Positions 19,080-58,291 of a stretch of 64,000 bases of DNA are shown here, piece after piece (positions within the stretch are counted from its first letter, which is position 1; the number at the start of each line of letters is the position of its first letter). Both the position numbers and the translations under genes were made by a program. Source of the stretch: Vicingaceae bacterium (lineage in GTDB: Bacteria > Bacteroidota > Bacteroidia > Flavobacteriales_E > Vicingaceae). The notes under the pieces are model-generated. The model was not told the origin of the DNA. It searched no databases and saw only the letters and a program-made list of their open reading frames with translations. The stretch spans positions 5,528-69,527 of the forward strand of contig BPHE01000009.1 in assembly GCA_026003395.1 (NCBI GenBank), read 5' to 3'.

Positions 19080-19085
19080 CGTATT

Positions 19086-19952: not shown

Positions 19953-20156
19953 GGGAAAAATTTTTATATTCTATAACATATTTATTTTAAATAGGATACA
20001 TGCCCACATGTAGGGCGCGAAAATAAAAAAAAACAGTTTAAAAACCATGTTTTATGGTTAAATCATAAAAAAAACTTAGATTATGCATTTTTAACAATAC
20101 ATTGGCAGGCAATTCGGATAAATCTAAAATAAATTTTAATAATTTTCGCCCTCAAT

Positions 20157-21218: not shown

Positions 21219-21247
21219 AAGCCCTTGAAATCAAGGGCTTTTATTGT
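21217..21247. terminator. bidirectional intrinsic terminator-like hairpin
   Basis: aaaagcccttgaaatcaagggctttt between convergent genes. A-run upstream and T-run downstream. Confidence 0.5.
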
Positions 21248-21307
21248 CTTGAGTTTTTTGAAATTTTCAAAAAATCAATATAAGCATGTGTTCGTTTGAG
21301 ACAATTT

Positions 21308-24090: not shown

Positions 24091-24096
24091 CGTATT

Positions 24097-24963: not shown

Positions 24964-25167
24964 GGGAAAAATTTTTATATTCTATAACATATTTATTTTA
25001 AATAGGATACATGCCCACATGTAGGGCGCGAAAATAAAAAAAAACAGTTTAAAAACCATGTTTTATGGTTAAATCATAAAAAAAACTTAGATTATGCATT
25101 TTTAACAATACATTGGCAGGCAATTCGGATAAATCTAAAATAAATTTTAATAATTTTCGCCCTCAAT

Positions 25168-26229: not shown

Positions 26230-26258
26230 AAGCCCTTGAAATCAAGGGCTTTTATTGT
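26228..26258. terminator. bidirectional terminator-like hairpin (duplicate)
   Basis: Same hairpin as 21217-21247. Confidence 0.5.
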
Positions 26259-26318
26259 CTTGAGTTTTTTGAAATTTTCAAAAAATCAATATAAGCATGT
26301 GTTCGTTTGAGACAATTT

Positions 26319-28724
26319 TTAGAAGTATCCACGAATGGTTATCCTGAAATTTCTTCCCGGGGCAGATATTCCCGAGGCAAAATGCCGGTAATTTTGATCA
26401 AGTATATTTTCTAAAGCTAATTGAATTTCGATGATTTTATTCAAATGGTAACCTGCGCGGGCATTGACGGTTATCCAGGCAGGCGTACCCCAAGGGGTGG
26501 CTTTGGATAAATTGTCTTCACCAAACATGTTATAATCTTTCAAGCGTTTCCATCCGTTATAAATAAAAAAGATTTCACCTTTGAATTTATTTTTGTTGAG
26601 TCTAAAAGAGGTCATTCCGTATACAGGAGGAATATGATCGAGAGGGTAAGGGGTCGAGTCGGTTTTTATCCTTCCGTAAGTATAAGTTAAAGTGCTGCGT
26701 ATGGAGAAATTTTCTGTAACATTTGCCTGCATAGAGGCCTGAAGGCCATAAATGAAAGCATTGAGGGCATTCTGGTTTGCCACAATCCGGCTCCAACGCC
26801 CGTCATAAAATATGGAATCCTGTCCGTTGAAAGTATAGGGAGCAGTGGTGATAAGATTATCATAATAGGTATAATAGGCGGTAGCTTCAAGGTATGTTTT
26901 TTCGATTTCGCGGCCTATGGTCAAATCTGCTGTGTAGGTATATTCGGGTTTTATGTTCGGGTTGGGCACAATCAAGAGTCCGGGCACCGATTCAAAAACC
27001 TTTCCAAGGTCATCCACGTTTGGCGATCGAAATCCTGTGTTACCGGTCAAAGCAAATTTCCATTTGCCGGGAAGCCAGGTTACTCCAAGCATGCCACTTG
27101 GTGCATGATTTACTTGATTTACAACATCAAATGGAAATGGGAAAAAGTTTTTGCTTTTGAATATAGATTTCAATTCAATGTAGTTATAACGGGATCCGGC
27201 ATGAAGAGTCAGTATGTCATTGAATTTATAAGCATAATTCAAATAAATGGCAGCACTGTACCAATCGCTTCCTCCATCGGGATAACGGGTATCCAATGAA
27301 TCGGTTTCGCCCGTGATAATATTGGTTGTATGAGCTTTAGACCAAACCTTATTGTAAACACCTTCGAGTCCGTAAAAAATTTTGTGTTTCTTGATTTTTT
27401 TGCTGAAATCTGCATTTAGCGCATAAACTTCAACATTTTCAATTCTGCTCTGAAGTTTAAGATTGTTTAAACGTCTTGTGTGACGGCTTTCTTCTATGTT
27501 TTGAAACGAAGTGGTAAGGGTGGCTTTATCCCACCATTTACCTTGTGTGTGTTCCAATTTATAGTATGTTAAGAGGCGTTTTTGCGGCCCATAATACCAT
27601 TCTGCATATCTGGGTAATCCTCCGGATGTTTGTTGCAGACGGTCGTATCTTGGGATGTTGCTTGATGTGGAATATTGGAAATTAAAGGTATGAGTGATGT
27701 TTGCGCTTTGTTTCCACATAATTTTTTGAAGCAGGTCATATTGTTTGTATCCGGACCCAACCTGTAGGTTTGGATTATTGTTTACAAAAACCGAATCTTT
27801 TCCTTCAATGGTTTTAACGTAAAAATTCCTGTACCAATCGGTGCCTAATGCATAGTTTCGATTGTTTCCTTGCATCAGGTCTCCAAAATCGGAATAAGTG
27901 AAGGAGGAAATCCAACCAAATTTATTGTTGGCAATCGAAAAGTCAATATGCCCGGTTTTCTCCTCGTTGGCGGTTGAATACCTGGTATAAGCACTTCCTT
28001 TGGTAATCCATTTTGAATCATTGGAAAATACTGGGTTTTTGGTTTGAAAAACCATCACTCCCCCCAACGCATCGCTTCCATATATTACCGATCCCGGGCC
28101 AAAGATTACTTCTGCCGATTGAAGCATGTTCGGATCAATCGTGATGACATTTTGTAAATGGCCTGAACGGTAAATGGCATTGTTCATTCTGATACCATCA
28201 ATCACCAACAACACACGGCTGGCTTCAAAACCTCTCAAAACGGGGCTGCCTCCGCCTTGTTGGGATTTCTGCACAAATACATCTCCGGTGTAGATTAACA
28301 TATCGGCCGTTGTTTGCGGGTTGTAAAAATTTATTTCTTCAGCTTCGATTTTTCTTATTTTTAAAGGGGACTCTTTTAAAGTTAGGGAATCGCGTTTGGG
28401 CGATATGACAAATGCTTCAAGATTGTAAACCTTTTCGTTTAACAAGATTTTAAAATTATTTTTCTCCAAATCTTCGTATGATACTGTAGCGGTAAAATAA
28501 GACAAATGTTTAATTTTGATTTGATCGCCTTTTTTCAGGCCAGTTAAGGTTATTTTACCTTTGTTGTCGGTGCTTCCTTGTAATACTTCATTAACATACA
28601 CATAAGCACCTGCCACAGGTTGCAGCGTGGCATTGTCCAATACGTTTATTTCTTGCCCAAAAGAGAATCCGGCAATAAAAACAAAAATACAAAACAATAT
28701 ATGGTTAAAATTTAATTTTTTCAT
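26319..28724 (-). CDS. TonB-dependent receptor with N-terminal carboxypeptidase-regulatory-like domain
   Basis: 801 aa. Signal peptide. Plug motifs (GGGSPVLRGFEASRVLLVIDGIRMNNA, GSDALGGVMVF). C-terminal aromatic residue (RGYF). Confidence 0.9.
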   Translation of the reverse strand: MKKLNFNHILFCIFVFIAGFSFGQEINVLDNATLQPVAGAYVYVNEVLQGSTDNKGKITLTGLKKGDQIKIKHLSYFTATVSYEDLEKNNFKILLNEKVYNLEAFVISPKRDSLTLKESPLKIRKIEAEEINFYNPQTTADMLIYTGDVFVQKSQQGGGSPVLRGFEASRVLLVIDGIRMNNAIYRSGHLQNVITIDPNMLQSAEVIFGPGSVIYGSDALGGVMVFQTKNPVFSNDSKWITKGSAYTRYSTANEEKTGHIDFSIANNKFGWISSFTYSDFGDLMQGNNRNYALGTDWYRNFYVKTIEGKDSVFVNNNPNLQVGSGYKQYDLLQKIMWKQSANITHTFNFQYSTSSNIPRYDRLQQTSGGLPRYAEWYYGPQKRLLTYYKLEHTQGKWWDKATLTTSFQNIEESRHTRRLNNLKLQSRIENVEVYALNADFSKKIKKHKIFYGLEGVYNKVWSKAHTTNIITGETDSLDTRYPDGGSDWYSAAIYLNYAYKFNDILTLHAGSRYNYIELKSIFKSKNFFPFPFDVVNQVNHAPSGMLGVTWLPGKWKFALTGNTGFRSPNVDDLGKVFESVPGLLIVPNPNIKPEYTYTADLTIGREIEKTYLEATAYYTYYDNLITTAPYTFNGQDSIFYDGRWSRIVANQNALNAFIYGLQASMQANVTENFSIRSTLTYTYGRIKTDSTPYPLDHIPPVYGMTSFRLNKNKFKGEIFFIYNGWKRLKDYNMFGEDNLSKATPWGTPAWITVNARAGYHLNKIIEIQLALENILDQNYRHFASGISAPGRNFRITIRGYF

Positions 28725-44497: not shown

Positions 44498-46765
44498 ATG
44501 AAAGTAAAACTACAATTTTTCATAATTCCCCTGTTAATTCTAAAAACTTCGGTTATATCAAACCTATATGCACAGGGAGCATATGGCTCGGTTAGATATG
44601 ACAGCATTCCTTTTTTTCACAACAACGACTCTTTGTTGAATCCCTTTACGGGAGGATTTAACAATCCTCAATTTTCACTTGGAGATTTAAATGGCGACGG
44701 CAAAAAAGACCTTTTTGTTTTTGACCGTTCAGGCAACAAGCCGATGGTGTTTATCAATGAAGGATCGCCCGGCAACCCCAAATATGTTTTCAAACATCAA
44801 TTTATGTCTTATTTTCCTTCTCCATCACAATACTCACCTTACATAGAAAGTTGGGCCTTGATAAGGGACTTTAATTGCGATGGTGTAGGGGATTTGTTTG
44901 CTTCGGCTCCGGGAGGTATCATGGTTTTTCGGAACGACGGGATTGCATATCCTCAGTTCACTTCTATAACCGGATTGCTTCTCTCCAATTATCAACCCAA
45001 CAATTTAAACATTTATGTGAGCTCAGCCGATATTCCGGGGATTGATGATGTCGATAAAGACGGTGACCTGGATATTTTGACTTTTGATGTGTTGGGTTCG
45101 CGACTCGAGTATCATCGTAACTATTCTATGGAAAATACCGGTTCTTGTGATACTCTTTGGTATGTTTTGAAAAACAAATGTTGGGGGCACTTCACTGAAA
45201 ATTCTTTTAATAATTCGATCAACCTATTCGATACCTGCAATTACAACGTGGCTTCACCCCAAAGGACCGGGCAGGGCAACAAACATGCGGGTTCGACAGT
45301 TTGTATCATAGAAACAAACAATAACGATGCCCGTGACCTTGTTTTAGGAGACATCTCGTTCCCCAATCTAACTCTGCTTACAAATTGTGCCACCCTTCCC
45401 AACTTAAATTCTTCAATGTGTTCCGCTGATACGGCTTTCCCTAAGAACCATACGAATACGATTGCTTCGGGGGTCCGTAACTTTCCCGCGGCATTTTGGC
45501 TTGATGTCAATGATGACGGTAAACGTGATTTGTTGGTTACGCCCAATGCCGCCGGCACGCTTGTTTCCGATAATTTTTTTAATGTATGGTATTATCAAAA
45601 CAATGGTTCCGACCTGAATCCTTCGTATAACCTTGTTTCAAAAAGGTTTCTTGCAGAAACTGCCGTAGATGTTGGAGAAGGGGCAAACGTTACCATGGCA
45701 GACTTAGACCAGGATGGCTTGTTGGATCTTTTCATCGGCAATTTCGCTTATTATGATTCCACCGGTGGAATGATAGCTTATTACAAAAACATAGGCACGG
45801 CAACCGCGCCGAAATTTAAACTCATTACCCATAATTTTGCCAACTTGCCCTCATACAATTTGAACACAACGTTGAATTTGCCTGCCAAAGCAATTGCCCC
45901 GACATTTGGAGACCTTGACGGTGACGGTGATGTAGATATGATTGTGGGAGACAGCGAAGGAAAAGTACACCTTTTCACCAATAACGGCAACGGAAACTTC
46001 TCACTTGCACAAGCCAATCTTTCTTCGATTGATGTGGGGGAATATGCTGCCCCTCAATTATTTGACCTTAATGGAGACGGACTGTTGGACCTCATTATTG
46101 GAGAAAAAGATGGCAATTTGAATTATTACGAAAATACAGGCACAGCATCCTCTCCTGTTTTCACATTGATAACTCAAAATCTTGGCAACGTTCAAGTCAA
46201 AAAATGGTGGGATTATCAAGGTTATAGTTATCCTTTCTTTTTCCATCATGGGCAAGATATACGTTTATTATGTGGAAGCAAATCCGGATACATTTATTAT
46301 TACGACAGCATCCAAAACAATCTTAATGGAAGTTTTCACCTGGTTGACACCATGTTTATGGATATTTGGGAAGGCATAAGATCAACCGTTGCCGGAGGTT
46401 TTTTTATGGGCAATGACACTTTGGTAGATTTTTTTGTAGGAACATACAATGGTGGAGTGGCTCCTCATAAAGGAACAGGTTATATTGCACCTTCTTCGGT
46501 TGATATCTATTCATTGCCGATAGATGCGGAAATTTATCCGGTTCCTGCATCAGACCATTTTTTGGTTCGCATACGTGAAGCATATTTGCGATTGAGTGAT
46601 CTTACCATAATAATATACAACCTTGCCGGGCAAATAGTGGGGAGTTATCCCTATTCCATGAATCCTGTCGATGTTAATCATCTTCCCGGCGGATTTTACC
46701 TGGTTAAGTTAGAGTGGAAAGGTAAGAAATTAAACTTTACGGGTAAACTAACCATAATCAGGTAG
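44498..46765 (+). CDS. FG-GAP/VCBS-repeat protein with T9SS (Por-type) C-terminal sorting domain
   Basis: Repeated Ca-binding-like DxNGDGxxDL motifs (GDLNGDGKKDLFV, DVDKDGDLDIL, DLDGDGDVDMIV, DLNGDGLLDLII). C-terminal IYPVPASDHFLV...GGFYLVKLEWKGK...LTIIR. Confidence 0.8.
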   Translation: MKVKLQFFIIPLLILKTSVISNLYAQGAYGSVRYDSIPFFHNNDSLLNPFTGGFNNPQFSLGDLNGDGKKDLFVFDRSGNKPMVFINEGSPGNPKYVFKHQFMSYFPSPSQYSPYIESWALIRDFNCDGVGDLFASAPGGIMVFRNDGIAYPQFTSITGLLLSNYQPNNLNIYVSSADIPGIDDVDKDGDLDILTFDVLGSRLEYHRNYSMENTGSCDTLWYVLKNKCWGHFTENSFNNSINLFDTCNYNVASPQRTGQGNKHAGSTVCIIETNNNDARDLVLGDISFPNLTLLTNCATLPNLNSSMCSADTAFPKNHTNTIASGVRNFPAAFWLDVNDDGKRDLLVTPNAAGTLVSDNFFNVWYYQNNGSDLNPSYNLVSKRFLAETAVDVGEGANVTMADLDQDGLLDLFIGNFAYYDSTGGMIAYYKNIGTATAPKFKLITHNFANLPSYNLNTTLNLPAKAIAPTFGDLDGDGDVDMIVGDSEGKVHLFTNNGNGNFSLAQANLSSIDVGEYAAPQLFDLNGDGLLDLIIGEKDGNLNYYENTGTASSPVFTLITQNLGNVQVKKWWDYQGYSYPFFFHHGQDIRLLCGSKSGYIYYYDSIQNNLNGSFHLVDTMFMDIWEGIRSTVAGGFFMGNDTLVDFFVGTYNGGVAPHKGTGYIAPSSVDIYSLPIDAEIYPVPASDHFLVRIREAYLRLSDLTIIIYNLAGQIVGSYPYSMNPVDVNHLPGGFYLVKLEWKGKKLNFTGKLTIIR

Positions 46766-46784
46766 TGATTTTCTGCATAAAAAT

Positions 46785-46812
46785 AAAAAGGGGCAATTAT
46801 AGCCCCTTTTTT
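46785..46812. terminator. bidirectional intrinsic terminator
   Basis: aaaaaggggc aattata gcccctttttt between convergent genes. Confidence 0.6.
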
Positions 46813-46839
46813 CAGTTGTTTAAAATAAGATAAAATAAA

Positions 46840-47784
46840 TTAGCTGCAAAGTTTCATTTCGTCAAGCACATTCATAACAGTTTTTACTGCATCAGCCGAT
46901 TGATACAGCAATGCCTTTTCTTCTTCGTTAAGATCGAGTTCTATAATTTTTTCCACTCCATTTTTTCCAAGAATCACAGGAACACCCAGATAAATATCCT
47001 TTAAACCATATTCCCCATTCAAGTATGCACAAACGGGTAAAATTCTCCTTTGATTCTTGATGATTGCTTCAACCATTTGTGCTGCAGACGCACCCGGCGC
47101 ATACCATGCAGAAGTGCCAAGCAATTTTACGATTTCCCCTCCACCAAATTTGGTTCGTTCAATGATGGCATCCAACTTCTCTTTTGAAATCAACTGGGTA
47201 ACGGGGATTCCGGAAACAGTGGTATATCTTGGCAAGGGAACCATCGTGTCTCCGTGACCACCGAGTAGCATTGCCTGAATGTCTTTGACCGATACATTCA
47301 GCTCCTCGGCCAAAAAGGCACGGTAACGGGCAGTGTCCAGCACACCGGCCATTCCAAATACTCTCGATGAATCCACCTTGGCAGTAAGATAGGCACAATA
47401 TGTCATTACGTCCAATGGATTGGATACTACAATGATGATGGCATTGGGAGAATATTTGATGACATTTTCCGTCACACTTTTGACAATGTTTGCATTGGTC
47501 GAAATTAAATCGTCACGGCTCATTCCGGGTTTTCTTGGCAACCCCGACGTGATTACAACTACATCAGAATTTTTGGTTTTTTCATAATCGTTGGTCGAAC
47601 CATATACTCTTGTGTCGTAAAGTTCGACAGGTGCTGTTTCCCATATGTCAAGAGCTTTGCCTTCGGCAAACCCCTCTTTGATGTCCAACAGCACTACCTC
47701 TTCTACAATTTCTTTTCTGGCAATGACATCGGCACATGTTGCGCCTACGTTGCCTGCTCCTATTACTGATACTTTCATAGTCAT
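46840..47784 (-). CDS. mdh: malate dehydrogenase (LDH-like MDH)
   Basis: MKVSVIGAGNVGATCA Rossmann start, ITSGLPRKPGMSRDDL, GGHGDTMVP. The start may be MKV at 47778. Confidence 0.93.
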   Translation of the reverse strand: MTMKVSVIGAGNVGATCADVIARKEIVEEVVLLDIKEGFAEGKALDIWETAPVELYDTRVYGSTNDYEKTKNSDVVVITSGLPRKPGMSRDDLISTNANIVKSVTENVIKYSPNAIIIVVSNPLDVMTYCAYLTAKVDSSRVFGMAGVLDTARYRAFLAEELNVSVKDIQAMLLGGHGDTMVPLPRYTTVSGIPVTQLISKEKLDAIIERTKFGGGEIVKLLGTSAWYAPGASAAQMVEAIIKNQRRILPVCAYLNGEYGLKDIYLGVPVILGKNGVEKIIELDLNEEEKALLYQSADAVKTVMNVLDEMKLCS

Positions 47785-47984
47785 TTGTTTTTGCCCGCTA
47801 AATTATAAAACTCATTAAAATTCAAAAGATTTTTTATCAATTTTTTTAAGTACATCTATTTTTGTAAATTAAAAATATGAATTACTTTAATTTTAGAATG
47901 TTTGATTTAAAGATATTTTCGCAAAAAAATTAATAATCTCTTAGGCAACCATTTTACGAACGTTGCGTTTTTAAGCTGAGATGA

Positions 47985-48557
47985 ATGAAAAAATTAACAG
48001 AAAAAGAATTATTAAAAGCCATTGAAGGGTGTAAAAAAAATGACCGACAAAGTCAAAAAATAATATATATGCATTATTATTCCACATTATTGCCTGTCTG
48101 CTATCGATACACATCCAACCGCGATGAAGCTCTTGACTTGTTACATGATGTTTTTTTAAAAATTTTTGAGAAAATAAAAAAATATAAACATACGGGTTCA
48201 TTTGAAGGATGGTTAAAACGATTAACTGTAAACTATGCCATTGATCGATATAGAAAAAACAAAAATATCCGCCCCCTTTCCACAGATGACGAAGAACACC
48301 CCATTCAAATTAGCGAAGTAGAGCCGGATGATGATTCAATTTTTACCCGGGTCTCTTCTTCCGATTTGGTGGATGCCATACGTCAATTGCCTGATGGGTA
48401 CAAAATGGTATTTTGTTTGTATTATTTAGAAGAAATGTCACATAAAGAGATAGCCGAAAAACTAAATATAAATGAAGGGACTTCAAAATCCAATTTGTTT
48501 AAAGCAAAAGCAAAACTAAAAGATATTTTAACCAAAAAATTATTGTTAAAATCATGA
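47985..48557 (+). CDS. ECF-type RNA polymerase sigma-70 family factor
   Basis: Region 2 (DVFLKIFEKI...FEGWLKRLTVNYAIDRYRK) and region 4 HTH (MSHKEIAEKLNINEGTSKSNLFKAKAKL). Confidence 0.88.
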   Translation: MKKLTEKELLKAIEGCKKNDRQSQKIIYMHYYSTLLPVCYRYTSNRDEALDLLHDVFLKIFEKIKKYKHTGSFEGWLKRLTVNYAIDRYRKNKNIRPLSTDDEEHPIQISEVEPDDDSIFTRVSSSDLVDAIRQLPDGYKMVFCLYYLEEMSHKEIAEKLNINEGTSKSNLFKAKAKLKDILTKKLLLKS

Positions 48558-49903
48558 CACCACAAGACAAAAAATTGAGTCAATTATTGCAAGAAAAACT
48601 CAATCGGTTGCCTGACGTAGACACCCAACCCCAATGGGAGAGAATGGAGCAATTGCTTCGTAAAAAATCATATTGGAGTAACTTGAAAACAGCATCTGCA
48701 ATTTTGATGCTTACCGCTTCTGTTGCCGGATTGAGCTATTTTGTAAGCATCAATGGAAACCTGAAGCACCAAGAAGACGGGCATTCGCAATCTATACATA
48801 AGCCGGACATCTCTCAAAAATTGTCAGAAAAACAGACATTCCGGCAAAATAATGATGAAACATTTTCCAACTCATCCAATACGGTTGTGAATGAAAATGT
48901 CAATATACAAGAAAAAGAAAGCTATAATGTTGTAAAAGAGAAAAATATCGATAACAAAGCCAAAAACAACTGTAATGATGCAAACAATACCACTACTTCT
49001 CAAGTAGCATTTCAAGATAAAAATCAAAAAACAATATCGAACGAAAACATGTCGGAAAATAAAACAAACAGTCCGCAACACTCCAATCAAGACATACCTG
49101 AATTCCATATTCTAAGCAGCAAGCCCGAATATTGTGAAGGGGAAATTATGGTATTTAAAACCGACCTTCAAGATAAAAATTTCACCAAACAATGGTTTGT
49201 CAATGGTGAATTTTACGCTTCAGGAAATGCAATATCTATTCCTGCAGAGTTGGATGAAAAAGGTAATGAATATGAAATTACCTTAATTGTACAAGATATA
49301 AAAAACAAAGAAACATCAACGAGCAAGACGCTCAAAGTAGACGTTTATCCTTTGCCTGAGCCCGAAATAAAATACAAAGAATTATATAAGGAAAACGAGG
49401 AAGAATACTTATTTAATCCTTATTGGGAATTTGAGACCTCAGGGCACTACAAACAAATTGAATGGCAACTTGGACAAGGAGAATACGCAAGAGGCAATAA
49501 GGTTCAAACTATTTATAAAAACCCGGGTATTTATGAGGTAAAGCTGACCGTAGTGGACAATAACGGATGTAAAGGCACTGCATTTAAAAAAATATATGTC
49601 GACAAAAAATATGATGTATTTGCACCCAATGCATTCACACCCGATCAGGATGGCTTGAACGACGAATTTATTCCCAAAGCATTAGAAAATACTACTGTTG
49701 AATATCTATTGGAAGTTTCGGACAGTGAGGGAAATATTGTGTTCAGATCAAATGATTTAAACAAAGCATGGAATGGAAAAATGATGAATATAGGCGATCC
49801 TATGCCTGAAGGAACTTATTTTTGGACTTGCACCATAAAAGATAAAAACGGAAAAACTCATCAATGGAACGGTCAGGTATTGTTGTTGAGAGAGAAAAAT
49901 TAA
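48554..49903 (+). CDS. membrane-anchored anti-sigma-like protein with PKD-like and T9SS type-B (CHU_C / gliding-motility-associated C-terminal) domains
   Basis: ATGA overlap with the sigma gene. About 50 aa N-terminus, then a TM segment (ASAILMLTASVAGLSYFV), then an N/K/S/Q-rich linker. PKD-like GIYEVKLTVVDNNGC. CHU_C signature FAPNAFTPDQDGLNDEF...GTYFW...GQVLLLR. Confidence 0.75.
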   Translation: MTPQDKKLSQLLQEKLNRLPDVDTQPQWERMEQLLRKKSYWSNLKTASAILMLTASVAGLSYFVSINGNLKHQEDGHSQSIHKPDISQKLSEKQTFRQNNDETFSNSSNTVVNENVNIQEKESYNVVKEKNIDNKAKNNCNDANNTTTSQVAFQDKNQKTISNENMSENKTNSPQHSNQDIPEFHILSSKPEYCEGEIMVFKTDLQDKNFTKQWFVNGEFYASGNAISIPAELDEKGNEYEITLIVQDIKNKETSTSKTLKVDVYPLPEPEIKYKELYKENEEEYLFNPYWEFETSGHYKQIEWQLGQGEYARGNKVQTIYKNPGIYEVKLTVVDNNGCKGTAFKKIYVDKKYDVFAPNAFTPDQDGLNDEFIPKALENTTVEYLLEVSDSEGNIVFRSNDLNKAWNGKMMNIGDPMPEGTYFWTCTIKDKNGKTHQWNGQVLLLREKN

Positions 49904-49969
49904 CCGTATTTTAAAACTTTATTGCCGATTTAAAGAATGTTTGTGGATGAAATTTAATGACAAAAAAAG

Positions 49970-49994
49970 AACGCTACAGATGTAGCGTTTTTTT
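49970..49994 (+). terminator. intrinsic terminator
   Basis: aacgctacagatgtagcgtt followed by tttttt. Confidence 0.55.
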
Positions 49995-50053
49995 AGTAAA
50001 ATAATTTTAACGTGCAACTTTTAACATTTTTTTGCTGTCTTATGTAAAAATAC

Positions 50054-50061
50054 TATATTTG
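50054..50061 (+). promoter_or_regulatory. candidate -7 promoter box (TAnnTTTG)
   Basis: tatatttg, 22 nt upstream of the ATG at 50083. Confidence 0.35.
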
Positions 50062-50082
50062 TTGACACAAAATATTATTTAT

Positions 50083-51126
50083 ATGAAATATAAATTTTTA
50101 TTGATAGTCGTTTTAGTGTTGAATTTTTCGAATATACTGTTTTCCCAAAACAATGTGGGAATCAACACCAGCACGCCGGACAATAGCGCCATGCTTGATG
50201 TAGTAGCCAACGACAAAGGGGTTTTGATACCTCGGTTAAATTCTGTACAAATGTTGGCGATTCCAAACCCTGCCAAAGGTCTGTTGATTTTCAACACCGA
50301 CAGTAACTGTTTTTGTTACAATGCAGGTACTCCGTTATTGCCCAACTGGGTATCATTATGTAGTGCAGGAGGATCAGGATCGCCCGGTCCGCAAGGCCCG
50401 ACAGGTCCAACCGGTCCCACAGGAGCACAAGGATTGCCCGGGCCACAAGGTCCGACAGGTCCACCGGAGCACAAGGTCCGGCAGGTCCACAAGGGTCCTA
50501 CAGGGCCGACCGGAGCACAAGGACCACAGGGGATACAAGGTCCAACCGGTCCAACCGGAGCACAGGGTCCGGCAGGTCCACAGGGTCCTACAGGGCCGAC
50601 CGGAGCACAAGGACCACAGGGGATACAAGGTCCAACCGGTCCAACTGGAGCGCAGGGTCCGGCAGGTCCACAGGGACCACAGGGTCCTACAGGACCACAG
50701 GGCCCTACGGGGGTTACATTTAAAACCGGTATTTATCTGACTTCTTCAGTAACTATAAATACAGCCACATGGGCAAATGTGCCGGGTATGTCGTTAACTT
50801 TTACCGCTCAAAATAGTAGTGCTTTAATTTTATTTACGGCCTCAGGTTATGGCTACACAAATTCTATGGCTTACGTGCAATTTAGAATATTAAACAATGG
50901 CTCCCCTATAGGAAGTACAAATACAAAAATACAAAGTTATGATGATTGGACCGGAACCGTAACACCTTGGAGTTGTTCATTTTCCAGGGTTATAACAGGA
51001 TTAATTCCCGGAAATACTTATACATTGACCGTACAAGGACAAAGAGGAGGAATTTTAGGTGTTTATGATGCAATAATTGATCCTTCCTTGGCTGGTCATC
51101 ACATGGCTTTAAATGTTGTACAATAG
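50083..51126 (+). CDS. collagen-like triple-helix-repeat secreted protein with globular C-terminal domain (paralog 1)
   Basis: Signal peptide [22 protein letters not shown], a ~95-aa conserved head, about 110 aa of Gly-X-Y ([13 protein letters not shown]...), and a ~140-aa non-repetitive tail. The ORF track starts 51 nt earlier. Confidence 0.75.
50138..50462 (+). repeat. shared 5' cassette of the two collagen-like genes (copy 1)
   Basis: About 325 bp nearly identical to 51198-51522 (offset 1060). I count 4 mismatches by eye. Confidence 0.85.
50494..50673 (+). repeat. 2 x 90-bp in-frame tandem repeat (30-aa Gly-X-Y unit)
   Basis: The unit ggtcctacagggccgaccggagcacaaggaccacaggggatacaaggtccaaccggtccaac[c/t]ggagc[a/g]cagggtccggcaggtccacag occurs twice. 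Confidence 0.8.
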
Positions 51127-51142
51127 ATAAAAATTTACCATT

Positions 51143-53104
51143 ATGATAAAAAAATGTAGTTTTTTTCTGATATTGTGTGTAATTTATGCTATCGGTGTTT
51201 TTTCCCAAAACAATGTGGGAATCAACACCAGCACGCCGGACAATAGCGCTATGCTTGATGTAGTAGCCAACGACAAAGGGGTTTTGATACCTCGGTTAAA
51301 TTCTGTACAAATGTTGGCGATTCCAAACCCTGCCAAAGGTCTGTTGATTTTCAACACCGACAGTAACTGTTTTTGTTACAATGCAGGTACTCCGTTATTG
51401 CCCAACTGGATATCATTATGTAGTGCAGGAGGATCAGGATCACCCGGTCCGCAAGGCCCGACAGGTCCAACCGGTCCCACAGGAGCACAAGGATTGCCCG
51501 GTCCACAAGGTCCGACAGGTCCGACCGGGGCACAAGGTCCGGCAGGTCCACAAGGTCCGACAGGTCCCACTGGGGCACAAGGTCCGGCAGGCCCACAAGG
51601 TCCGACAGGTCCTACCGGGGCACAAGGTCCGGCAGGTCCACAAGGTCCGACAGGTCCTACTGGGGCACAAGGTCCGGCAGGTCCACAAGGTCCGACAGGT
51701 CCGACAGGTCCTACCTGGACATTGTCTACTATTACATATAATTCCAATGGAACCATTACTCTAAATGGTACAGCCGGTTCGGGAGGACCTATTTCAACCA
51801 CAGGTGGTGCCTGGTTGACAACCGGAAATACGGGAACTACGCCTGCAAGCAATTGGATAGGAACGAATGATAACGTTGATTGGGTGATGAGAACCAATAA
51901 TACCGAAAGGGCCAGAATAACCAATGACGGAAGGTATTTGATCAATCTTGCCACTCCAAATGCCGGCGAAAGATTAACCGTGAATGCAGGAACAGGGTTT
52001 GATGCGGTAAATGGCTATGCTGCAGGTACAAACTTCGGAGGATATTTTCAAAGTACAGGAGGTGCAGGTGTGGGTGCATTCGGCGCAAATGACAATGCAA
52101 GTGGTGCAGGATTGTTTGGACTTAATACTTCAACCGGTGCCGGTACGGTGGGACAAGCAAATTTAGGCAATGGTACGGGTGTTGTAGGTGTCAATTTTGC
52201 TGCCGCAGGAGCGGGTAATGGAGATGGTGTCTATGGTACCACTGCACAAAGCGCAGGATTTGGAGTTTTTGGTACAAACACTAATACGAGCGGAACAGGA
52301 ATTGTCGGTGCCGGAAATAATACAACAGCCGGTTATATAACCACCGGTAGTGGTGGAGCATTTACAGGAACCGGTTTGGGTATTTATGGTTATGCCAATA
52401 CAACTACCGGAACGGGTGCATTATTTAGAGGAAATAATGTCTCTCCTTTTTATACAGTGACAAATGGAAGTGGAAGTGCTTCGAACGGAACTACCCTTGG
52501 TGTGGTTGGTTATTCTTTAAGCACGACCGGTTCAACGGCAAGATTCGGTGGATATTTTGAACAAATTGCTACAATGATTTATGCGTATGTAGGTGGAATA
52601 ACTGCAACAAACACTGCCCGGAAAATAGAGGGTATGGGTACTGTAAATACCGTGGTGAAAGATGTCAATGGCAATCTTGTTGTGCTTTCTGCTCCCGAAG
52701 CACCCGAAAATTTATTCCAGGATTTCGGTGTGGGCCGTTTGGTCAATGGTCGTGCCCATATACAGTTAGATCCAAATTTTTCTAAAAATATTGTCGTCAA
52801 CGAAAAACATCCCTTAAGAGTATTTATTCAATTAAAAGGGGATTGTAAAGGGGTGTATGTTACCAATGAATCTGCTACCGGATTTGATGTGATAGAATTG
52901 CAAGGAGGAAATTCAAATGTGGAGTTTTATTGGTTTGTAACTGCCAATCGAGCTGATGAAGTGAATGCGGATGGAACCGTTGCCCGATATTCTGAAGAAA
53001 GATTTGCACCGGCCATTGGCCCACAACCTAAAACAGAGATGCAACAACGTGAAATAACACCTAGACAGATAAATACTCCTGTGAGAGAAATGAAAAGACG
53101 TTAA
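51143..53104 (+). CDS. collagen-like triple-helix-repeat secreted protein with Gly-rich beta-helix-like and C-terminal domains (paralog 2)
   Basis: Signal peptide, the same head domain as paralog 1, about 100 aa of Gly-X-Y, then degenerate G-x-G-[VIL]-x-G repeats ([42 protein letters not shown]) and a ~200-aa tail. Confidence 0.75.
51198..51522 (+). repeat. shared 5' cassette of the two collagen-like genes (copy 2)
   Basis: See 50138-50462. Confidence 0.85.
51509..51688 (+). repeat. 4 x 45-bp in-frame tandem repeat ([15 protein letters not shown] unit)
   Basis: Units at 51509, 51554, 51599 and 51644, differing only at a few third positions. Confidence 0.85.
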
Positions 53105-53133
53105 ATGAATCCTGATGCATATCCATAGATGTG

Positions 53134-53161
53134 AAGCCGGGTTTTACCCCGGCTTTTTTTT
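53134..53161 (+). terminator. intrinsic terminator after collagen-like paralog 2
   Basis: aagccggg ttttac cccggctt followed by a T-run. Lies inside the 5' extension of the ORF-track fcl ORF. Confidence 0.6.
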
Positions 53162-53201
53162 AAAATTTATATTTTTACGGCGAAAATCAAAAAGCTTAAG
53201 C

Positions 53202-54146
53202 ATGGATAAAAAATCAAGAATATATGTGGCAGGTCACAGAGGTATGGTGGGATCCGCATTGTTAAGAAAGTTGCAAAAAGAAGGATTTGAAAATATTATC
53301 ACCCGGACTTCAAGTGAATTGGATCTTACCAGGCAATATGATGTAGAGAAATTTTTTGAAGAAAATCGTCCTGATTATGTTTTTTTGGCTGCTGCAAAAG
53401 TGGGAGGAATCCTGGCAAACAATACTTACCGCGCAGATTTTATATACAAAAATTTAATGATAGAAGCAAATGTAATCCATGCATCTTATCTTTACGGTGT
53501 TAAAAAACTTTTGTTTCTGGGATCATCATGTATCTATCCAAAAATGGCACCACAGCCGATGAAAGAGGAATATCTGCTCACCGGACCTTTGGAATGCACA
53601 AACGAACCTTATGCCATAGCCAAAATAACCGGCATAAAACTTTGTGAAAATTACAGGAAACAGTACGGATGTAATTTTATATCCGTAATGCCTACAAACT
53701 TATATGGGCCCAATGACAATTATGACTTGCAAAATTCACACGTCTTGCCGGCATTGTTGAGAAAATTTCATACAGCCAAAATAAAAGGGTTGCCTTATGT
53801 TGAGATATGGGGTACAGGCACGCCCAAAAGAGAATTTCTGCATGTGGATGACCTTGCCGATGCCTGTTTGTTTTTAATGGAAAAATATGACGGGGACCTA
53901 TGGTTGAATGTAGGTACCGGTAAGGATATCAGCATCAAGGATCTGGCTTTGATGATAAAAGAAATTGTGGGTTATGAAGGAGAATTAAAATTTGACACGA
54001 CAAAACCGGACGGAACCCCAAGAAAATTGTTGGATGTCAGCAGAATTCATGCTTTGGGATGGAAGCACAAAATAGAACTTGATACAGGTATTCGCATGGT
54101 ATATGAGCAGGAAGTGAAAAAAATGGAATTTTTTGAAAATGCATGA
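53202..54146 (+). CDS. fcl: GDP-L-fucose synthase
   Basis: [56 protein letters not shown]. Collinear with E. coli Fcl as I recall it. The start at MDKKSR follows the terminator. Confidence 0.93.
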
Positions 54147-55684
54147 AGCGTTATATAGTTTTTTTAATCATATTTCGGATAACAGTCATAGAAAAAAGTT
54201 TCTCACAAACAATAGTATATCCTGTTCCTGTCAACTTTATTCATCAATTGCCTATTGAACAGATCCTAAATGATTCGGGATATTTTACAGCTTCTAAACC
54301 TTTGATGGCCGTTTATGACAAAAACACACATCTTCCCATGTATTCATATAGATTTAAAGAAAGTGATACAAACCGGACAAGATGGTTGAATAAATTCACA
54401 AAAGAAGATTTATTGAAGTTAGATTCATCCGGTTATTATTTATCGTTAAATCCGATGATGGATTTTACAGCAGGAATTGATAATAAATTCAATACATATT
54501 ATTACAATACGAGGGGGATTCAAATTAAGGGTTATGTCAATAAAGTGTCGTTGTATGCCATTTATACCGAAAATCAGGCGGGATTGCCGTTATACCAGCA
54601 TAACTACGTAAAAAATGGAGAGATAGTGTTAATTAATAATGATAGCAGTTATTCAAGGCAGACGGGTTATGGGATGGTACAAGGCAAAGGAAGGTCAAAG
54701 CCTTTTAAAAACAAAGACAGAGATTTTGGTTATTTTCAAGGTCAGTGGGTCTATTCCATCAGTTCGGAGTTAAGGGTAGGTATGGGGTACGACAAATTAT
54801 TTTTTGGACAAGGATACAGGAGTATATTGTGGAGTGATTTTGCTTCGCCGTTTCCTTATGCTTTCTTGCAGTACAACAAAAGAAAAAAATGGCAATATGA
54901 ATTTTATGCCGGACAATTATTGGAAGGTGTAAGGAATAAAAGTTTATTTACAACGGCAGAATCCTATTTTTTTAAAAAAACTTTTTACATATATCATTTT
55001 CAATGGCATGTCGGCAAGAATCTGACTCTTTCGTATTTTGAAAAAAATTTTTGGATGCCCAGTTATTTTGGTTCGAACAATTGGATGCCCGAGGATTATA
55101 TACCAGTTCCTTTTTATCAAATTTTCCGCAAGAATGCTTTTCAAAGAAATATTTACACATCATCGGGAGCCGGTCTGAGTTATTATTTGCCGTCAATGAA
55201 AACAATAATTTTTGGCCAAGGGCTTCATTCATTCCAATATGCCGGTAATTACGCTTGGCAGGCCGGTATCAAAAAATTTGGCAATATATGGTCAATCTGG
55301 GCAGAATATAACCATGCGTACCAAAGTTATTATCACGAGCATCATTTGAACGAAAATATCGTGCATCCGTTTGGCCCTATATTTAAAGAGGTTGTTCTTG
55401 GGACTTTGGTCAACTACCGCAGATGGATGTGTTCAATAGAGTATATCTCAGGAGAATTTCCTTACACAAACAGGCTATACCTTTATGAATTATCGGGATA
55501 TTCGACGAATCAAAATCTGAGAAAAGTTATGTCATGGCGTGGAAGATCCGCATTTATAGTCAATCCTGCATATCAATGGCATTTGTTTATTGAGATTTTA
55601 TCAAGGAAAGCAGGCAATACAAAAGAAAATTACCTAATGTTTGGCATAAATACTAATTTAGTGGTCAAAAATCATTTATATTGA
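54143..55684 (+). CDS. putative outer-membrane beta-barrel protein, Wzi/RemB-like (family assignment tentative)
   Basis: Signal peptide. Aromatic-rich alternating pattern. [12 protein letters not shown] motif. Distant paralog of 56738-58291. ATGA overlap with fcl. Confidence 0.55.
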
Positions 55685-55685
55685 A

Positions 55686-56741
55686 ATGGTCTGGGGAGAA
55701 GCCATATTATCGCTATTGACTGCTTTTTTAATAGCACTGGTAAGTTATCCGGTTTATATCAAAGTGGCTATATACAAACGATTATTTGATGTACCGGACA
55801 AAGAACGGAAAATTCATGAGAAACATATTCCTTCCATGGGAGGCATAATCATGTTTGCCGCAACACTTATTTCATTCTTTTTTTGGTATCCAATTAATGA
55901 TATTCATATAACAAGGTTTTTGGTACCATCGATAATAATATTGGTTTTCATCGGTATAAAAGACGATATCATCGGCACATCGGCTGTATATAAATTATCG
56001 GCGCAAATTTTTGTGGCATTGTTGATGACCTTAGCGGCGGATGTCAGAATAACCGGTTTTCACGGATTGTTCGGTATAAGGGAAATTCCGGAGTATTTGT
56101 CGGTATTATTCACGGTATTTACGTTTATAGTTATCATCAATTCGTTTAATTTGATTGACGGTATTGATGGACTTGCGGGAGGAATTGGATTCAACACCGC
56201 ATTTTGGATGGGTGTTTGGTTTGTCTTGGCCGGAAACAACCTGATGAGTGTATTGGCTTTTGCATTGTCCGGTTCCTTATTGGCATTTTTAATTTTCAAT
56301 ATGCAGCCTGCGAAAGTTTTTATGGGAGATACAGGATCATTGTTTATTGGTTTGTTGATGGCTGTGTTATCTATAGTTTTGATTGAATATGACAAAGATC
56401 TGCTTCCCCATTATATGAAAACATTATCCAAGCCATTGTTGGGTATGGCTATGTTGAGCTATCCTTTATTTGATACATTGAGAGTTTTTTTTATCAGGAT
56501 CATGAAAGGCAGGTCTCCATTTTTGCCGGACCGCAATCATATTCACCACTTATGGATTGATCTTGGGAAATCGCACAAGCAAGCCACATTTATTTTAGTT
56601 TTTTCGAATATTTTTATAGTAATGGTGACAGTATTGGCTACGTATTTTCTTGAAAGTTTACCGGCATTTTTATTGTCATTTGGCACTACTTTCCTGGTTT
56701 ATTTGTGGCCATGGTTTTTAAAAGAAAAGTCAAAGAAATGA
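55686..56741 (+). CDS. glycosyltransferase family 4 polyprenyl-phosphate HexNAc-1-phosphate transferase (WecA/MraY-like)
   Basis: About 10 TM segments. DDIIG, NLIDGIDGLAGG, FMGDTGSLFIG and HIHH motifs. Confidence 0.85.
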   Translation: MVWGEAILSLLTAFLIALVSYPVYIKVAIYKRLFDVPDKERKIHEKHIPSMGGIIMFAATLISFFFWYPINDIHITRFLVPSIIILVFIGIKDDIIGTSAVYKLSAQIFVALLMTLAADVRITGFHGLFGIREIPEYLSVLFTVFTFIVIINSFNLIDGIDGLAGGIGFNTAFWMGVWFVLAGNNLMSVLAFALSGSLLAFLIFNMQPAKVFMGDTGSLFIGLLMAVLSIVLIEYDKDLLPHYMKTLSKPLLGMAMLSYPLFDTLRVFFIRIMKGRSPFLPDRNHIHHLWIDLGKSHKQATFILVFSNIFIVMVTVLATYFLESLPAFLLSFGTTFLVYLWPWFLKEKSKK

Positions 56742-58291
56742 CCATTGCGGGCAAATTGAAATATTTGATTTTTATTTTTTTGATGTCTTCATCAATTTTA
56801 CATGCACAAACGGCCTGGTTATCTCATCCCGTCAAGTTCCTGGCAGTAGAAAAGCAATTGCTCGAGAATAATTATTTTCCGTTGTCATTTCCATTCTTAA
56901 CGCCTCAAGACACTATCATTCAATCGAATTATTTCAAAAAGAATTCAAACTTTTACCTGTTGCCTTTGATCAATAGCTTTGCCGTATTGGGATCAAACAT
57001 GCAATATGCCGACACTTACAACGAATATAATGGAATGTATGTCGAACCCGGCTTGGGAATGTTTTATCGGTATAAGAGACATACATTCACAGCATCCATT
57101 CAAGGCAGTTTTTTTTTACCGACAGATTCACTTCCGGCAGCATACGGAAATTATGCCCCGGTGCCGGGATTTTCCAAAGGTTATGATATAAATGGACGGA
57201 TAGGCGCGTCGAATTATGGAGAGTTTGTTTGGAAATATCATTCTAAAAAATATTTTTCTTTCTCGGCAGGAATAGGGAAATATCAGATAGGAAACGGGTT
57301 ACGTTCATTGTTGCTTTCGCAAGAATCGACATCTTATCCTTTTTTGGCGGCAAATGTAAACTTGGGAAAATTGTCCTATACGCACGTGCTTTGTTTTTGG
57401 AATGATTTCATTGTGCTAAATGACCTAAATGGAAATAATTATACAGTATTTGCATCCAAACCCGGGGTTTTTCATTATTTAACCTACAGACCTTTTCGTT
57501 GGTGGGAGTTTGGTTTGTTTGAGTCGGTGATTTGGCAAGGACAAAACGGTAGGATGCACCGAGGTGTTGAATGGGCCTATCTCAATCCGGTGATATTTAT
57601 TCGGCCTGTTGAGTTTTCGATGGGGTCGGCAGATAATGTATTGGCCGGTTTTCAAAATTTATTCAGGGGCAAAAAATGGATTTTTTATCAGCAATTGATG
57701 TTGGATGAGTTTTTGTTGGAGGAGATCAGAAAACAACAGGGATGGTGGGGAAATAAATTTGCTTTTCAAACAGGATTTACGTTATATGATATTTTAGGTT
57801 TGAAAAATATATTTTTGAAAGGTGAATTGAATGTAATCAGACCATTTACGTATACACATGAGACAAAAAATGCCAACAATTTGGGAATACAAAACTACAG
57901 TCATAACCGGCTGCCATTGGCTCATCCATTTGGTGCAAATTTGATGGAGTATATTTTATGGGCCGGTTGGGATAACCAACAATGGCATGTTTCAGCCACA
58001 TATTCATTTATGCGGCAAGGCAGGGATTCTGTAAATACCAATTTAGGCAGCAATATTTTTTTATCATACTCTACCAGAACCAGAAATTATGCCAATAGAT
58101 TTTTACAGGGACTGCCTTATATTCATCGTTCAATAGGGATAAATATTCAATACAAAATGGGTTTGAACCATGCATTTTTTATTCAGGTAAAAAGTATGTC
58201 TGAAGAATATGGAAGACAAAAAAATGTAAGCTTACTATTGAAAGCGGGAATTCAGACATATTTTAACCGGCAAGGTTTGAAAAAAATTTGA
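56738..58291 (+). CDS. putative outer-membrane beta-barrel protein, Wzi/RemB-like (second paralog)
   Basis: The start MTIAGKLKYLIFIFLMSSSILHAQ gives a signal peptide and an ATGA overlap with the upstream stop. IGNGLRSLLLSQ and PLAHPFGANLME motifs. Confidence 0.55.
   Translation: MTIAGKLKYLIFIFLMSSSILHAQTAWLSHPVKFLAVEKQLLENNYFPLSFPFLTPQDTIIQSNYFKKNSNFYLLPLINSFAVLGSNMQYADTYNEYNGMYVEPGLGMFYRYKRHTFTASIQGSFFLPTDSLPAAYGNYAPVPGFSKGYDINGRIGASNYGEFVWKYHSKKYFSFSAGIGKYQIGNGLRSLLLSQESTSYPFLAANVNLGKLSYTHVLCFWNDFIVLNDLNGNNYTVFASKPGVFHYLTYRPFRWWEFGLFESVIWQGQNGRMHRGVEWAYLNPVIFIRPVEFSMGSADNVLAGFQNLFRGKKWIFYQQLMLDEFLLEEIRKQQGWWGNKFAFQTGFTLYDILGLKNIFLKGELNVIRPFTYTHETKNANNLGIQNYSHNRLPLAHPFGANLMEYILWAGWDNQQWHVSATYSFMRQGRDSVNTNLGSNIFLSYSTRTRNYANRFLQGLPYIHRSIGINIQYKMGLNHAFFIQVKSMSEEYGRQKNVSLLLKAGIQTYFNRQGLKKI

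Follow-up and report, generated by a model that had tools for sequence, protein, structure and literature searches.

The locus described here, positions 47985 to 53104 of a 64,000-nucleotide stretch of contig BPHE01000009.1 from a Vicingaceae bacterium (the whole stretch is called the window below), consists of four forward-strand genes, all of them present where an earlier note, made from the sequence alone, had placed them. The first, g1 (47985–48557), encodes an extracytoplasmic function (ECF) sigma factor of 190 amino acids, and the second, g2 (48554–49903), a predicted anti-sigma factor of 449 amino acids similar to dual membrane-spanning anti-sigma (Dma) proteins. The third and fourth, g3 (50083–51126; 347 amino acids) and g4 (51143–53104; 653 amino acids), encode secreted, putatively trimeric fiber proteins with a PTL_trimer head and a collagen-like stalk. 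The most interesting element is g2, a Dma-like protein whose outer module is a type IX secretion system (T9SS) sorting domain. The collagen-like genes are less notable, because they are members of a huge uncharacterized family. We consider it somewhat probable that the locus comprises a Dma-like sigma/anti-sigma unit and a separate g3-g4 fiber unit, with the sigma factor raising the expression of both its own operon and g3-g4.

According to this model, the cytoplasmic N-terminus of g2, some 45 residues long, would hold the g1 sigma factor. A single inner-membrane helix would be followed by a disordered linker of 122 residues crossing the periplasm, and the far end of the protein, consisting of PKD and CHU_C domains, would probably be offered to the type IX secretion machinery or else be threaded through it. 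The pair would drive its own transcription from a promoter of the form GGCAAC-N16-CGT. The g3-g4 transcription unit would supply two trimeric fibers exported through the general secretory (Sec) pathway, one with a lectin-type tip resembling TNF and C1q (g3) and the other with a tip resembling that of phage tail fibers (g4). A sigmaA-type promoter would give basal expression of g3-g4. Release of the sigma factor, brought about by some change at the outer end of g2 (engagement of the T9SS, surface contact, or proteolysis), would raise expression of its own operon as well as that of g3-g4, the latter via a weak promoter of variant form at 50013.

The sigma factor and its promoter

The earlier note's assignment of g1 to the ECF sigma factors is borne out by its domains. 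Sigma70_r2 (54.6 bits) and Sigma70_r4_2 (63 bits) of Pfam and the family TIGR02937 (104 bits against a cut-off of 42.9) all match, placing the protein in the ECF class (group IV) of sigma-70 factors. Its region 4.2 contains a segment, HKEIAEKLNI(N/S)EGTSKSNL, that is invariant in four aligned orthologs. The closest sigma factor among the GTDB representatives matched is 51% identical to g1.

A predicted autoregulatory ECF-type promoter of g1-g2, GGCAAC-N16-CGTTTT, is found on the forward strand at 47944–47971, 41 nt 5' of the g1 ATG. It is the sole strict match in the window, where 0.03 would be expected by chance, and it stands far above the runner-up site on both matrices that were used (29.7 against 9.6 bits on the first, 26.4 against 14.8 bits on the second). 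More than 15 lineages were examined, and in most of them the same motif occurs 39 to 43 nt 5' of the ATG of the sigma gene. A mark of ECF sigma factors is autoregulation from a promoter whose −35 box is of the AAC type and whose −10 box is of the CGT type, and the site fits the CGT-box ECF promoters that have been seen experimentally in Flavobacterium psychrophilum (PMC9723704). Since the motif is unique and top-scoring, is conserved across lineages, and fits those known promoters, autoregulation of g1 is well supported in silico.

The anti-sigma-like protein and its relatives

The start of g2 overlaps the end of g1 by 4 nt (ATGA), as befits the gene of a cognate anti-sigma factor adjacent to that of an ECF sigma factor, and the overlap or a near-overlap is kept in relatives. 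The layout that the earlier note had read in g2 was recovered in each of its parts. A hydrophilic, presumably cytoplasmic N-terminus (residues 1–45), bearing a conserved motif that includes W28, precedes the sole hydrophobic segment, a predicted membrane helix at residues 47–68 (48692–48757, forward strand, as are all features of g2). Next comes a polar linker, so judged by its composition (residues 69–190; 48758–49123), in which 75% of the 122 residues are N, Q, S, T, K, E, D, or H and 20% are hydrophobic; the region is poorly conserved in the alignment. A PKD domain (PKD_4, 43.6 bits) occupies residues 296–343 (49439–49582), and a CHU_C domain, the type-B sorting domain of the T9SS (51.6 bits against a cut-off of 27), residues 357–436 (49622–49861). 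The related model TIGR04131 also matches, though at the borderline (35.1 bits against a cut-off of 35). The protein therefore ends with the C-terminal CHU_C/TIGR04131 sorting domain that characterizes type-B cargo of the T9SS. Elsewhere the window encodes proteins associated with gliding and the T9SS, namely GldD and a protein with a type-A C-terminal domain (CTD).

Homologs of g2 are rare: a word-indexed search returned 17. In every lineage so recovered, the sigma gene overlaps the g2 homolog (94%, 36%, 28%, and 27% identity to g2), and relatives whose identity in g2 ranges between 94% and about 24% keep the features of the pair. A wider scan of GTDB with an alignment of the sigma factor gave 80 loci across Bacteroidota, about 25 of which have a sigma gene with an overlapping or adjacent partner that possesses a membrane helix near its N-terminus and ends in CHU_C. 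A Pfam scan of 78 partner proteins found PKD_4 in 17, CHU_C in 20, and in 16 the barrel domain OMP_b-brl_2, with Parabacteroides and Tannerellaceae loci among the sources of the latter. The partners have an N-terminal motif in common, KLxxxExxxxxxxWxxIxxxL, and at least 90% of the 78 carry its tryptophan (W28 in g2). Because translational coupling, the near-invariant tryptophan motif, the single membrane helix, and CHU_C are kept across relatives, the view of g1 and g2 as a genuine conserved pair of the sigma/anti-sigma type is supported, as far as sequence comparison can support it.

A sister class of such proteins ending in a T9SS sorting domain is thus widespread, accounting for 20 of the 78 partners of the nearest sigma relatives, and its existence suggests that wiring of the Dma type is also plugged into type IX secretion and the gliding apparatus. 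About half of the 78 partners (those of L015 to L094; L numbers denote the loci of relatives) show the N-terminal membrane-helix layout yet match no Pfam domain, be it CHU_C, OMP_b-brl_2, or another. There may be additional types of C-terminal module in this class of anti-sigma factor.

Transcription of the fiber genes

The spacer between g2 and g3 contains an intrinsic-terminator hairpin with a U7 tail (49965–49994, forward strand; −15.5 kcal/mol, z −5.6), kept in L010, and a second intrinsic terminator (53133–53156, forward strand; −15.7 kcal/mol, z −3.9) marks the 3' end of the g3-g4 unit. The earlier note had set the module between strong terminators with a weaker one inside. All three hairpins exist, but the one between g2 and g3 is not weaker than the others, and the upstream one (46785–46811; −14.5 kcal/mol) is no direct boundary of the module: it ends a convergent pair formed by a forward gene (44498–46765) and mdh on the reverse strand (46840–47784). 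Since the spacer between them is just 16 nt, g3 and g4 are probably co-transcribed. A scan of 46700–53400 with Rfam found no RNA family.

The same note had proposed that the sigma/anti-sigma pair regulates the collagen-like genes and that an ECF-type promoter be sought upstream of 50083. Such a search yields a candidate for a weak or variant sigma-dependent promoter, TGCAAC-N17-TGTCT (GTGCAACT-N14-GCTGTCTT), at 50013–50040 on the forward strand. The element is in register with TGCAACC-N15-GCCGTCTA before the PTL genes of L109 and with the L015 sequence ACAACC..CGTCTA. L005 retains it too: TGCAAC is kept there as in the window, and the GTC core is kept in the window. The pattern KGCAAC-N17-YGTCT matches the window only here (0.04 expected), a pattern chosen after the site had been seen. 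Because T replaces C at the first −10 position, the site scores only 3.1 bits on the softer matrix, which is not significant (region-corrected p ~0.33). The first, strict matrix placed no site upstream of g3 among its top 20 in the window, and a proven ECF promoter before g3 is accordingly not claimed. Two calibrations apply to these scans: the expression [GT]GCAAC-N16/17-CGTC finds about seven unrelated matches in 1.33 Mb (both strands), so that single matches away from the expected position mean little, and a generic sigma-70 promoter scan was uninformative (31 matches, 29.7 expected).

A promoter-like element of the sigmaA type, TTTG-N19-TATATTTG, can also be read upstream of g3, at 50031–50061 on the forward strand, 22 nt 5' of the g3 ATG. 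Its TATATTTG box, to be compared with the flavobacterial −7 consensus TAnnTTTG of sigmaA (PMC9723704), is kept in L005. Basal expression of g3-g4 driven by sigmaA is on these grounds likely.

Other lineages present better cases. The autoregulatory motif recurs before the cargo gene downstream of the pair in L007 (21.6 bits), L008 (22.4 bits), L023 (two sites, 13.3 and 21.0 bits), and L025 (11.0 bits), before the first PTL gene in L015 (12.7 bits, region-corrected p ~0.001), and, as TGCAACC-N15-GCCGTCTA, between the PTL genes of L109/L110. In several further lineages, the downstream gene begins 11 to 96 nt past the anti-sigma gene, with no terminator between them, and these short gaps suggest that the pair and the downstream gene form an operon there. 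In L019 a different motif, TTTAAGGGTA-N..-CAATCGTTAT, occurs twice in the long spacer 3' of the anti-sigma gene (11808–12415); the copies could represent a promoter for another sigma factor or a repeated element.

Gene neighborhoods

Sigma, anti-sigma, and PTL genes are found together in four lineages: that of the window (with L010 and L108, which are of the same lineage), L005 (36–37% identity in g2), L015 (~50% identity in the sigma factor), and L109, which has three PTL-collagen genes (42% identity in the sigma factor). The four belong to two sigma subclades. The sigma factor of L109 is nearer (54–55% identity) to sigma factors that have ordinary CHU_C cargo downstream, and the arrangement is therefore not merely inherited in one clade. 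Within the nearest sigma subfamily, wherever the context is informative, the pair is always followed by same-strand genes for secreted surface proteins. In other close sigma relatives, large secreted CHU_C proteins are encoded downstream, often after a small secreted protein.

The fiber genes have an association of their own. A g3-type gene lies directly 3' of a CHU_C gene, with gaps of 19 to 179 nt, in seven of eight informative lineages (the window, L011, L014, L125, L174, L187, and L189, the exception being L142). This calls for a revision of the statement in the earlier note that no neighboring gene explains the collagen proteins; here the CHU_C gene is g2. The CHU_C proteins encoded upstream of the other g3-type genes are ordinary cargo and have signal peptides. 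For g4-type genes the enrichment is moderate: CHU_C is encoded immediately upstream in 6 of 50 lineages and within two genes in 11. Some PTL genes elsewhere sit in operons with CHU_C cargo and PorP/SprF genes. Since the fibers have no T9SS tag and their genes follow those of CHU_C proteins, the association suggests that CHU_C proteins help to export or anchor the fibers.

That tendency is the basis of the main alternative, in which the two units are independent: g1/g2 would control itself and unlinked genes, g3-g4 would be expressed constitutively from the sigmaA-type promoter, and the two would be neighbors only as PTL-collagen genes tend to follow CHU_C genes, whatever their kind. We think this possible, though on balance doubtful. 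Several of the observations weigh against sigma control and fit independence instead. A strong terminator separates g2 from g3; a sigmaA-type box pair, partly conserved, precedes g3; and the ECF-like site there is not significant on the matrix. The g3-type genes of L011, L014, L125, L174, L187, and L189 stand behind ordinary CHU_C cargo with no adjacent sigma pair, which for L011, L014, L187, and L189 means none adjacent upstream; in L187 an ECF-type sigma gene does occur, on the other strand and about 3 kb downstream. The synteny check proposed in the earlier note came out divided in the same way, for beside the four lineages that keep the arrangement, a sigma pair is found near g4-family genes in just 2 of 50 dereplicated lineages. 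As the other 48 have none, the fibers do not generally depend on such a pair. Independence, however, does not account for the sigma-type motifs directly 5' of the PTL genes in L015 and L109/L110, the element in the same register in the window and L005, the recurrence of the arrangement in two sigma subclades, or the surface-protein gene downstream of every close sigma relative whose context is informative. Control of g3-g4 by the sigma factor in the window is, in sum, plausible but unproven.

Two further features of these neighborhoods were observed. Behind the g3-type gene in most other lineages is a gene for a small secreted protein (72–96 amino acids), rich in Lys, Ser, and Thr, of low complexity, and with no match in Pfam (L011 11030–11281, L014 1640–1909, L095 1520–1810, L187 8092–8382, L189 8122–8379, L125 4593–4844, and L126 5633–5881). 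The window lacks it and has g4 instead, 16 nt after g3. In addition, the short-read assemblies of close relatives (L001–L004, L005, and L006) all end inside the g3 head, 150 to 450 nt past the g2 stop and mostly no more than about 340 nt past it. The breaks were probably caused by the duplicated head and the collagen repeats, and systematic under-assembly of such fiber loci in metagenomes is to be expected.

The fiber proteins

The earlier note's description of g3 and g4 as secreted paralogs holds: their heads are identical, both have Gly-X-Y rods, and their C-terminal parts are unrelated. In g3, a signal peptide (residues 1–21; signal peptides were judged by inspection) is followed by a PTL_trimer head (22–95), a collagen stalk (96–212), and a tip resembling TNF and C1q (213–347). 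In g4, the signal peptide and head (22–95) are followed by a collagen region (96–191), a β region rich in Gly, Thr, and Asn (192–465), and a conserved C-terminal domain (465–625). The PTL_trimer label (PF26696) of the heads rests on precomputed matches of orthologs and of hundreds of homologs; in particular, PF26696 and Collagen both match P0018, a near-identical ortholog of g3 from L010.

The two heads are identical as protein and 99% identical as DNA over 300 nt (50140–50439 and 51200–51499). Since heads so nearly identical are joined to gene parts that differ, gene conversion or a cassette-like exchange of tips on an unchanging base is suggested. The three PTL genes of L109 (3907–8200) likewise have near-identical heads.

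Both proteins have the long uninterrupted Gly-X-Y runs of collagen, with 36 triplets in g3 (runs of 11 and 25) and 32 in g4, and both match Pfam Collagen (55 and 47.5 bits, respectively). The run in g3 is broken over 10 residues by a −1/+1 frameshift pair about 35 nt apart (50455–50492), the break being the +1-frame reading of a repeat of the GAQGPAGPQ type. The 95%-identical P0018 has uninterrupted Gly-X-Y at that position. Either the frameshift pair is an error of sequencing or assembly within the repeat, or the triple helix is truly interrupted here.

Literature searches for PTL_trimer and PF26696 turned up nothing directly relevant. The head family is very large: clustered at 50% identity, it has 25,444 representatives (E ≤ 1e-3). 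Among the library proteins, P0214–P0361 carry 2 to 11 copies of a PTL_trimer-like head per protein, are up to 4,024 amino acids long, and do not confine the copies to the N-terminus. Judging from these sequences, the module serves as a repeat unit of giant fiber-like proteins besides its role as a head.

A search of the PDB with the sequence of the g3 tip gave nothing below an E value of 0.09, and it was the fold search alone that resolved the tip. The AlphaFold2 model of the tip has a pLDDT mostly between 87 and 98, above 90 over most of the domain. Foldseek matched it to two TNF-like lectins, the N-terminal domain of BC2L-C and PLTL (E 3e-6, TM-score 0.71–0.74), and further to Pgp3, BxpB (8d02), the NC1 domain of collagen X (1gr3), the gC1q domain of C1QTNF5 (4f3j), and a fiber tip from Bdellovibrio. 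At the level of the modeled fold, then, the tip is a C1q/TNF jelly roll, and g3 would have the collagen plus C1q/TNF design of C1q and BclA. The g4 family has at least 991 homologs, nearly all with PF26696 and most without collagen. The AlphaFold2 model of g4 is confident only in the head and at residues 520–610, and Foldseek gave weak matches to domains of phage tailspikes, tail fibers, pyocin fibers, and Bdellovibrio fibers and to phage tail-fiber-like models.

Such matches raise the question of whether g3 and g4 are leftover tail-fiber genes of a prophage, tailocin, or contractile injection system, with no bearing on the biology of the cell surface. The C-terminal Peptidase_S74 domain of the third L109 PTL protein and of other related PTL proteins could be cited in favor, Peptidase_S74 being a trimer-assembly chaperone of tail fibers, as could the matches of PHROG tail-fiber families to both g3 and g4. 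The PHROG matches, however, fall mainly on the collagen repeats and were set aside as repeat-driven. Both proteins begin with Sec signal peptides, and neither lies in a tail gene cluster. The annotated neighbors (mdh, gldD, uvrC, a sugar epimerase, a glycosyltransferase, and cytochrome oxidase) include no phage or injection-system genes, in keeping with the earlier note, which had seen no phage structural genes. The chromosomal context is kept in relatives, a scan across 2.9 million viral contigs returned 10 matches, mostly to the collagen part alone, and the large head family appears repeatedly in non-phage contexts among the loci examined. A phage origin of the locus is very unlikely.

We propose that g3 and g4 are trimeric fibers that would be exported via Sec. 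No T9SS tag was matched in either protein by Pfam or NCBIfam, and this absence counts against a surface location, which we infer for both. The locus provides a first genomic handle on the PTL_trimer fiber family, which is essentially unstudied and whose members have collagen stalks, lectin-type tips, no recognizable export tag, and genes tied to those of T9SS type-B cargo.

A secretion tag on a predicted membrane anchor

The layout of g2 poses a topological puzzle, a protein anchored in the inner membrane yet carrying a secretion tag. No cleavable N-terminal Sec signal peptide was seen in g2 by inspection, the hydrophobic segment starting at residue 47. Three points tell against its acting as a tethered anti-sigma factor engaged by the T9SS: a Pfam scan matched no anti-sigma domain in g2; no PorP/SprF-like gene was found in the 64-kb window at E ≤ 0.01 with a custom hidden Markov model (built from four PorP/SprF-like proteins, among them that of L173, confirmed as PF11751 at 134 bits); and we know of no experimental precedent for an inner-membrane anchor on a protein tagged for the T9SS. 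That g2 is instead an ordinary T9SS type-B cargo protein with an unusually long signal peptide is nevertheless hardly credible, for although CHU_C and PKD are typical cargo domains, no anti-sigma domain is matched, and the CHU_C proteins before other g3-type genes are signal-peptide cargo, g2 has 46 hydrophilic residues before its hydrophobic segment, with a motif common to 78 sigma-adjacent proteins including those of Dma layout, all close lineages retain the overlap of its start with the stop of the sigma gene, and the equivalent residues 1–40 of Dma1 bind a sigma factor (PMC10927553).

Beyond the favored model of a tethered anti-sigma factor, a more specific scheme may be imagined, which we put forward as a long shot. 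The CHU_C end of g2 might be caught by the type IX translocon, or threaded through it, with the N-terminus remaining in the inner membrane and holding the sigma factor, so that secretion activity, or tension or occupancy at the surface, would free the sigma factor, and fibers lacking a CTD might arrive or be retained at the surface by docking on CHU_C proteins such as g2. If so, g2 would constitute a secretion checkpoint for the T9SS akin to that of FlgM, and docking would explain why g3-type genes nearly always follow CHU_C genes and why heads are kept identical within a locus. More generally, the locus offers a hypothesis linking type IX secretion and surface fibers to ECF signaling. Whether T9SS activity or surface contact controls expression through such tethers is a question that can now be tested.

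Other features of the window

Downstream of the g3-g4 terminator (53115–58291) lies a gene resembling those of GDP-sugar epimerases/reductases. Its true start is likely 53202, not the ATG at 53115, since the latter precedes the terminator hairpin. It is accompanied by a Glycos_transf_4 gene (55686–56741) and by genes for two unannotated proteins with signal-like N-termini, of 513 (54143–55684) and 528 amino acids (56705–58291). A role for these genes in glycosylation of the Thr-rich GPT collagen repeats, a modification that BclA undergoes, was considered; in L109 the sugar genes are not adjacent to the PTL genes.

Far from the locus, the window contains a near-perfect tandem duplication (17386–22313 and 22397–27324; 4,928 nt, 99.7% identity, period 5,011 nt), by which the open reading frames at 19086–19952 and 20157–21218 recur at 24097–24963 and 25168–26229. 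It may be a real recent event or an artifact of assembling a metagenome-assembled genome.

Comparison with known systems

BclA, of the Bacillus anthracis exosporium, has a GPT-rich collagen stalk carrying a C-terminal jelly-roll trimer of the TNF/C1q type. C1q and collagen X likewise join a collagen stalk to such a domain, and g3 appears to be built in the same way. The best fold matches of g3, however, are not these proteins but the TNF-like lectins BC2L-C and PLTL, and g3 differs from BclA in having no sequence homology to it, a Gram-negative source, a Sec signal peptide, and, at its N-terminus, a PTL_trimer head. Scl1 and Scl2 of Streptococcus and Lcl of Legionella are also secreted Gly-X-Y proteins and are thought to be adhesins. 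NCBIfam models of these families match the collagen region of g3/g4, though only the Gly-X-Y part and far below their cut-offs (75 bits against 500 for Lcl, 71 against 325 for SclB, 62 against 400 for SclA), and g3 and g4 have other terminal domains and no LPXTG anchor. The chimeric fibers of Bdellovibrio bacteriovorus (structures of Bd2133, Bd1334, Bd3182, and Bd2734) resemble g3 and g4 as chromosomally encoded trimeric fibers with a shared base and interchangeable tips. The fold matches to them are weak to moderate and hold for domain folds only, and those fibers belong to another phylum and have neither collagen stalk nor PTL head.

On the side of g2, the T9SS type-B cargo operons of Flavobacteria of the SprB/SprF type have the CHU_C domain in common with it. 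The anchor of g2 is predicted to remain uncleaved in the inner membrane, in contrast to such cargo, and there is no PorP/SprF gene close by. Functionally, the nearest precedent is PorA, in the PorA-PorXY-SigP pathway of Porphyromonas gingivalis (Yukitake et al. 2020, PMC7712824), where a protein with a T9SS CTD relays the state of the surface or of the T9SS to an ECF sigma factor, SigP, which controls secretion-related genes. PorA, though, is free cargo with a CTD of type A, signals by way of a two-component system, and does not serve as an anti-sigma factor itself, whereas g2 would combine CTD and sigma-binding segment in one polypeptide.

The closest structural parallel is to the Dma proteins, whose published layout is restricted to Bacteroidota (2024, PMC10927553). 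Residues 1–40 of Dma1 bind the ECF21 sigma factor Das1, a single inner-membrane helix follows, and then a long disordered linker crosses the periplasm to an eight-stranded barrel in the outer membrane; that Dma1 spans both membranes was demonstrated by fractionation of the dual-tagged protein (PMC10927553). The paper on Dma makes no mention of the T9SS, and no description of an anti-sigma factor bearing a T9SS or CHU_C domain came to light in literature searches. Like Dma, g1/g2 is a sigma and putative anti-sigma operon in Bacteroidota, and g2 has a presumably cytoplasmic segment of about 40 residues, one predicted inner-membrane helix, a long disordered linker, and a C-terminal module that would be directed to the outer membrane. 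The N-terminal motif is common to both, and sigma factors 38–45% identical to g1 are paired with proteins of exact Dma layout, whose published partners are ECF21 (PMC10927553); a placement of g1 in ECF21 would rest on these pairings. The two differ at their outer ends: Dma ends in the eight-stranded OMP_b-brl_2 barrel and g2, in which a Pfam scan found no OMP_b-brl match, in PKD and CHU_C domains, so that its outer-membrane step would use the T9SS and not the β-barrel assembly machinery. The likely regulon differs as well, consisting of adjacent surface fibers or adhesins in the present case and of NigD1 and vesiculation in that of Dma. In its sequence, g2 parallels a Dma protein in which the barrel has been swapped for a PKD domain and a type-B sorting domain of the T9SS.

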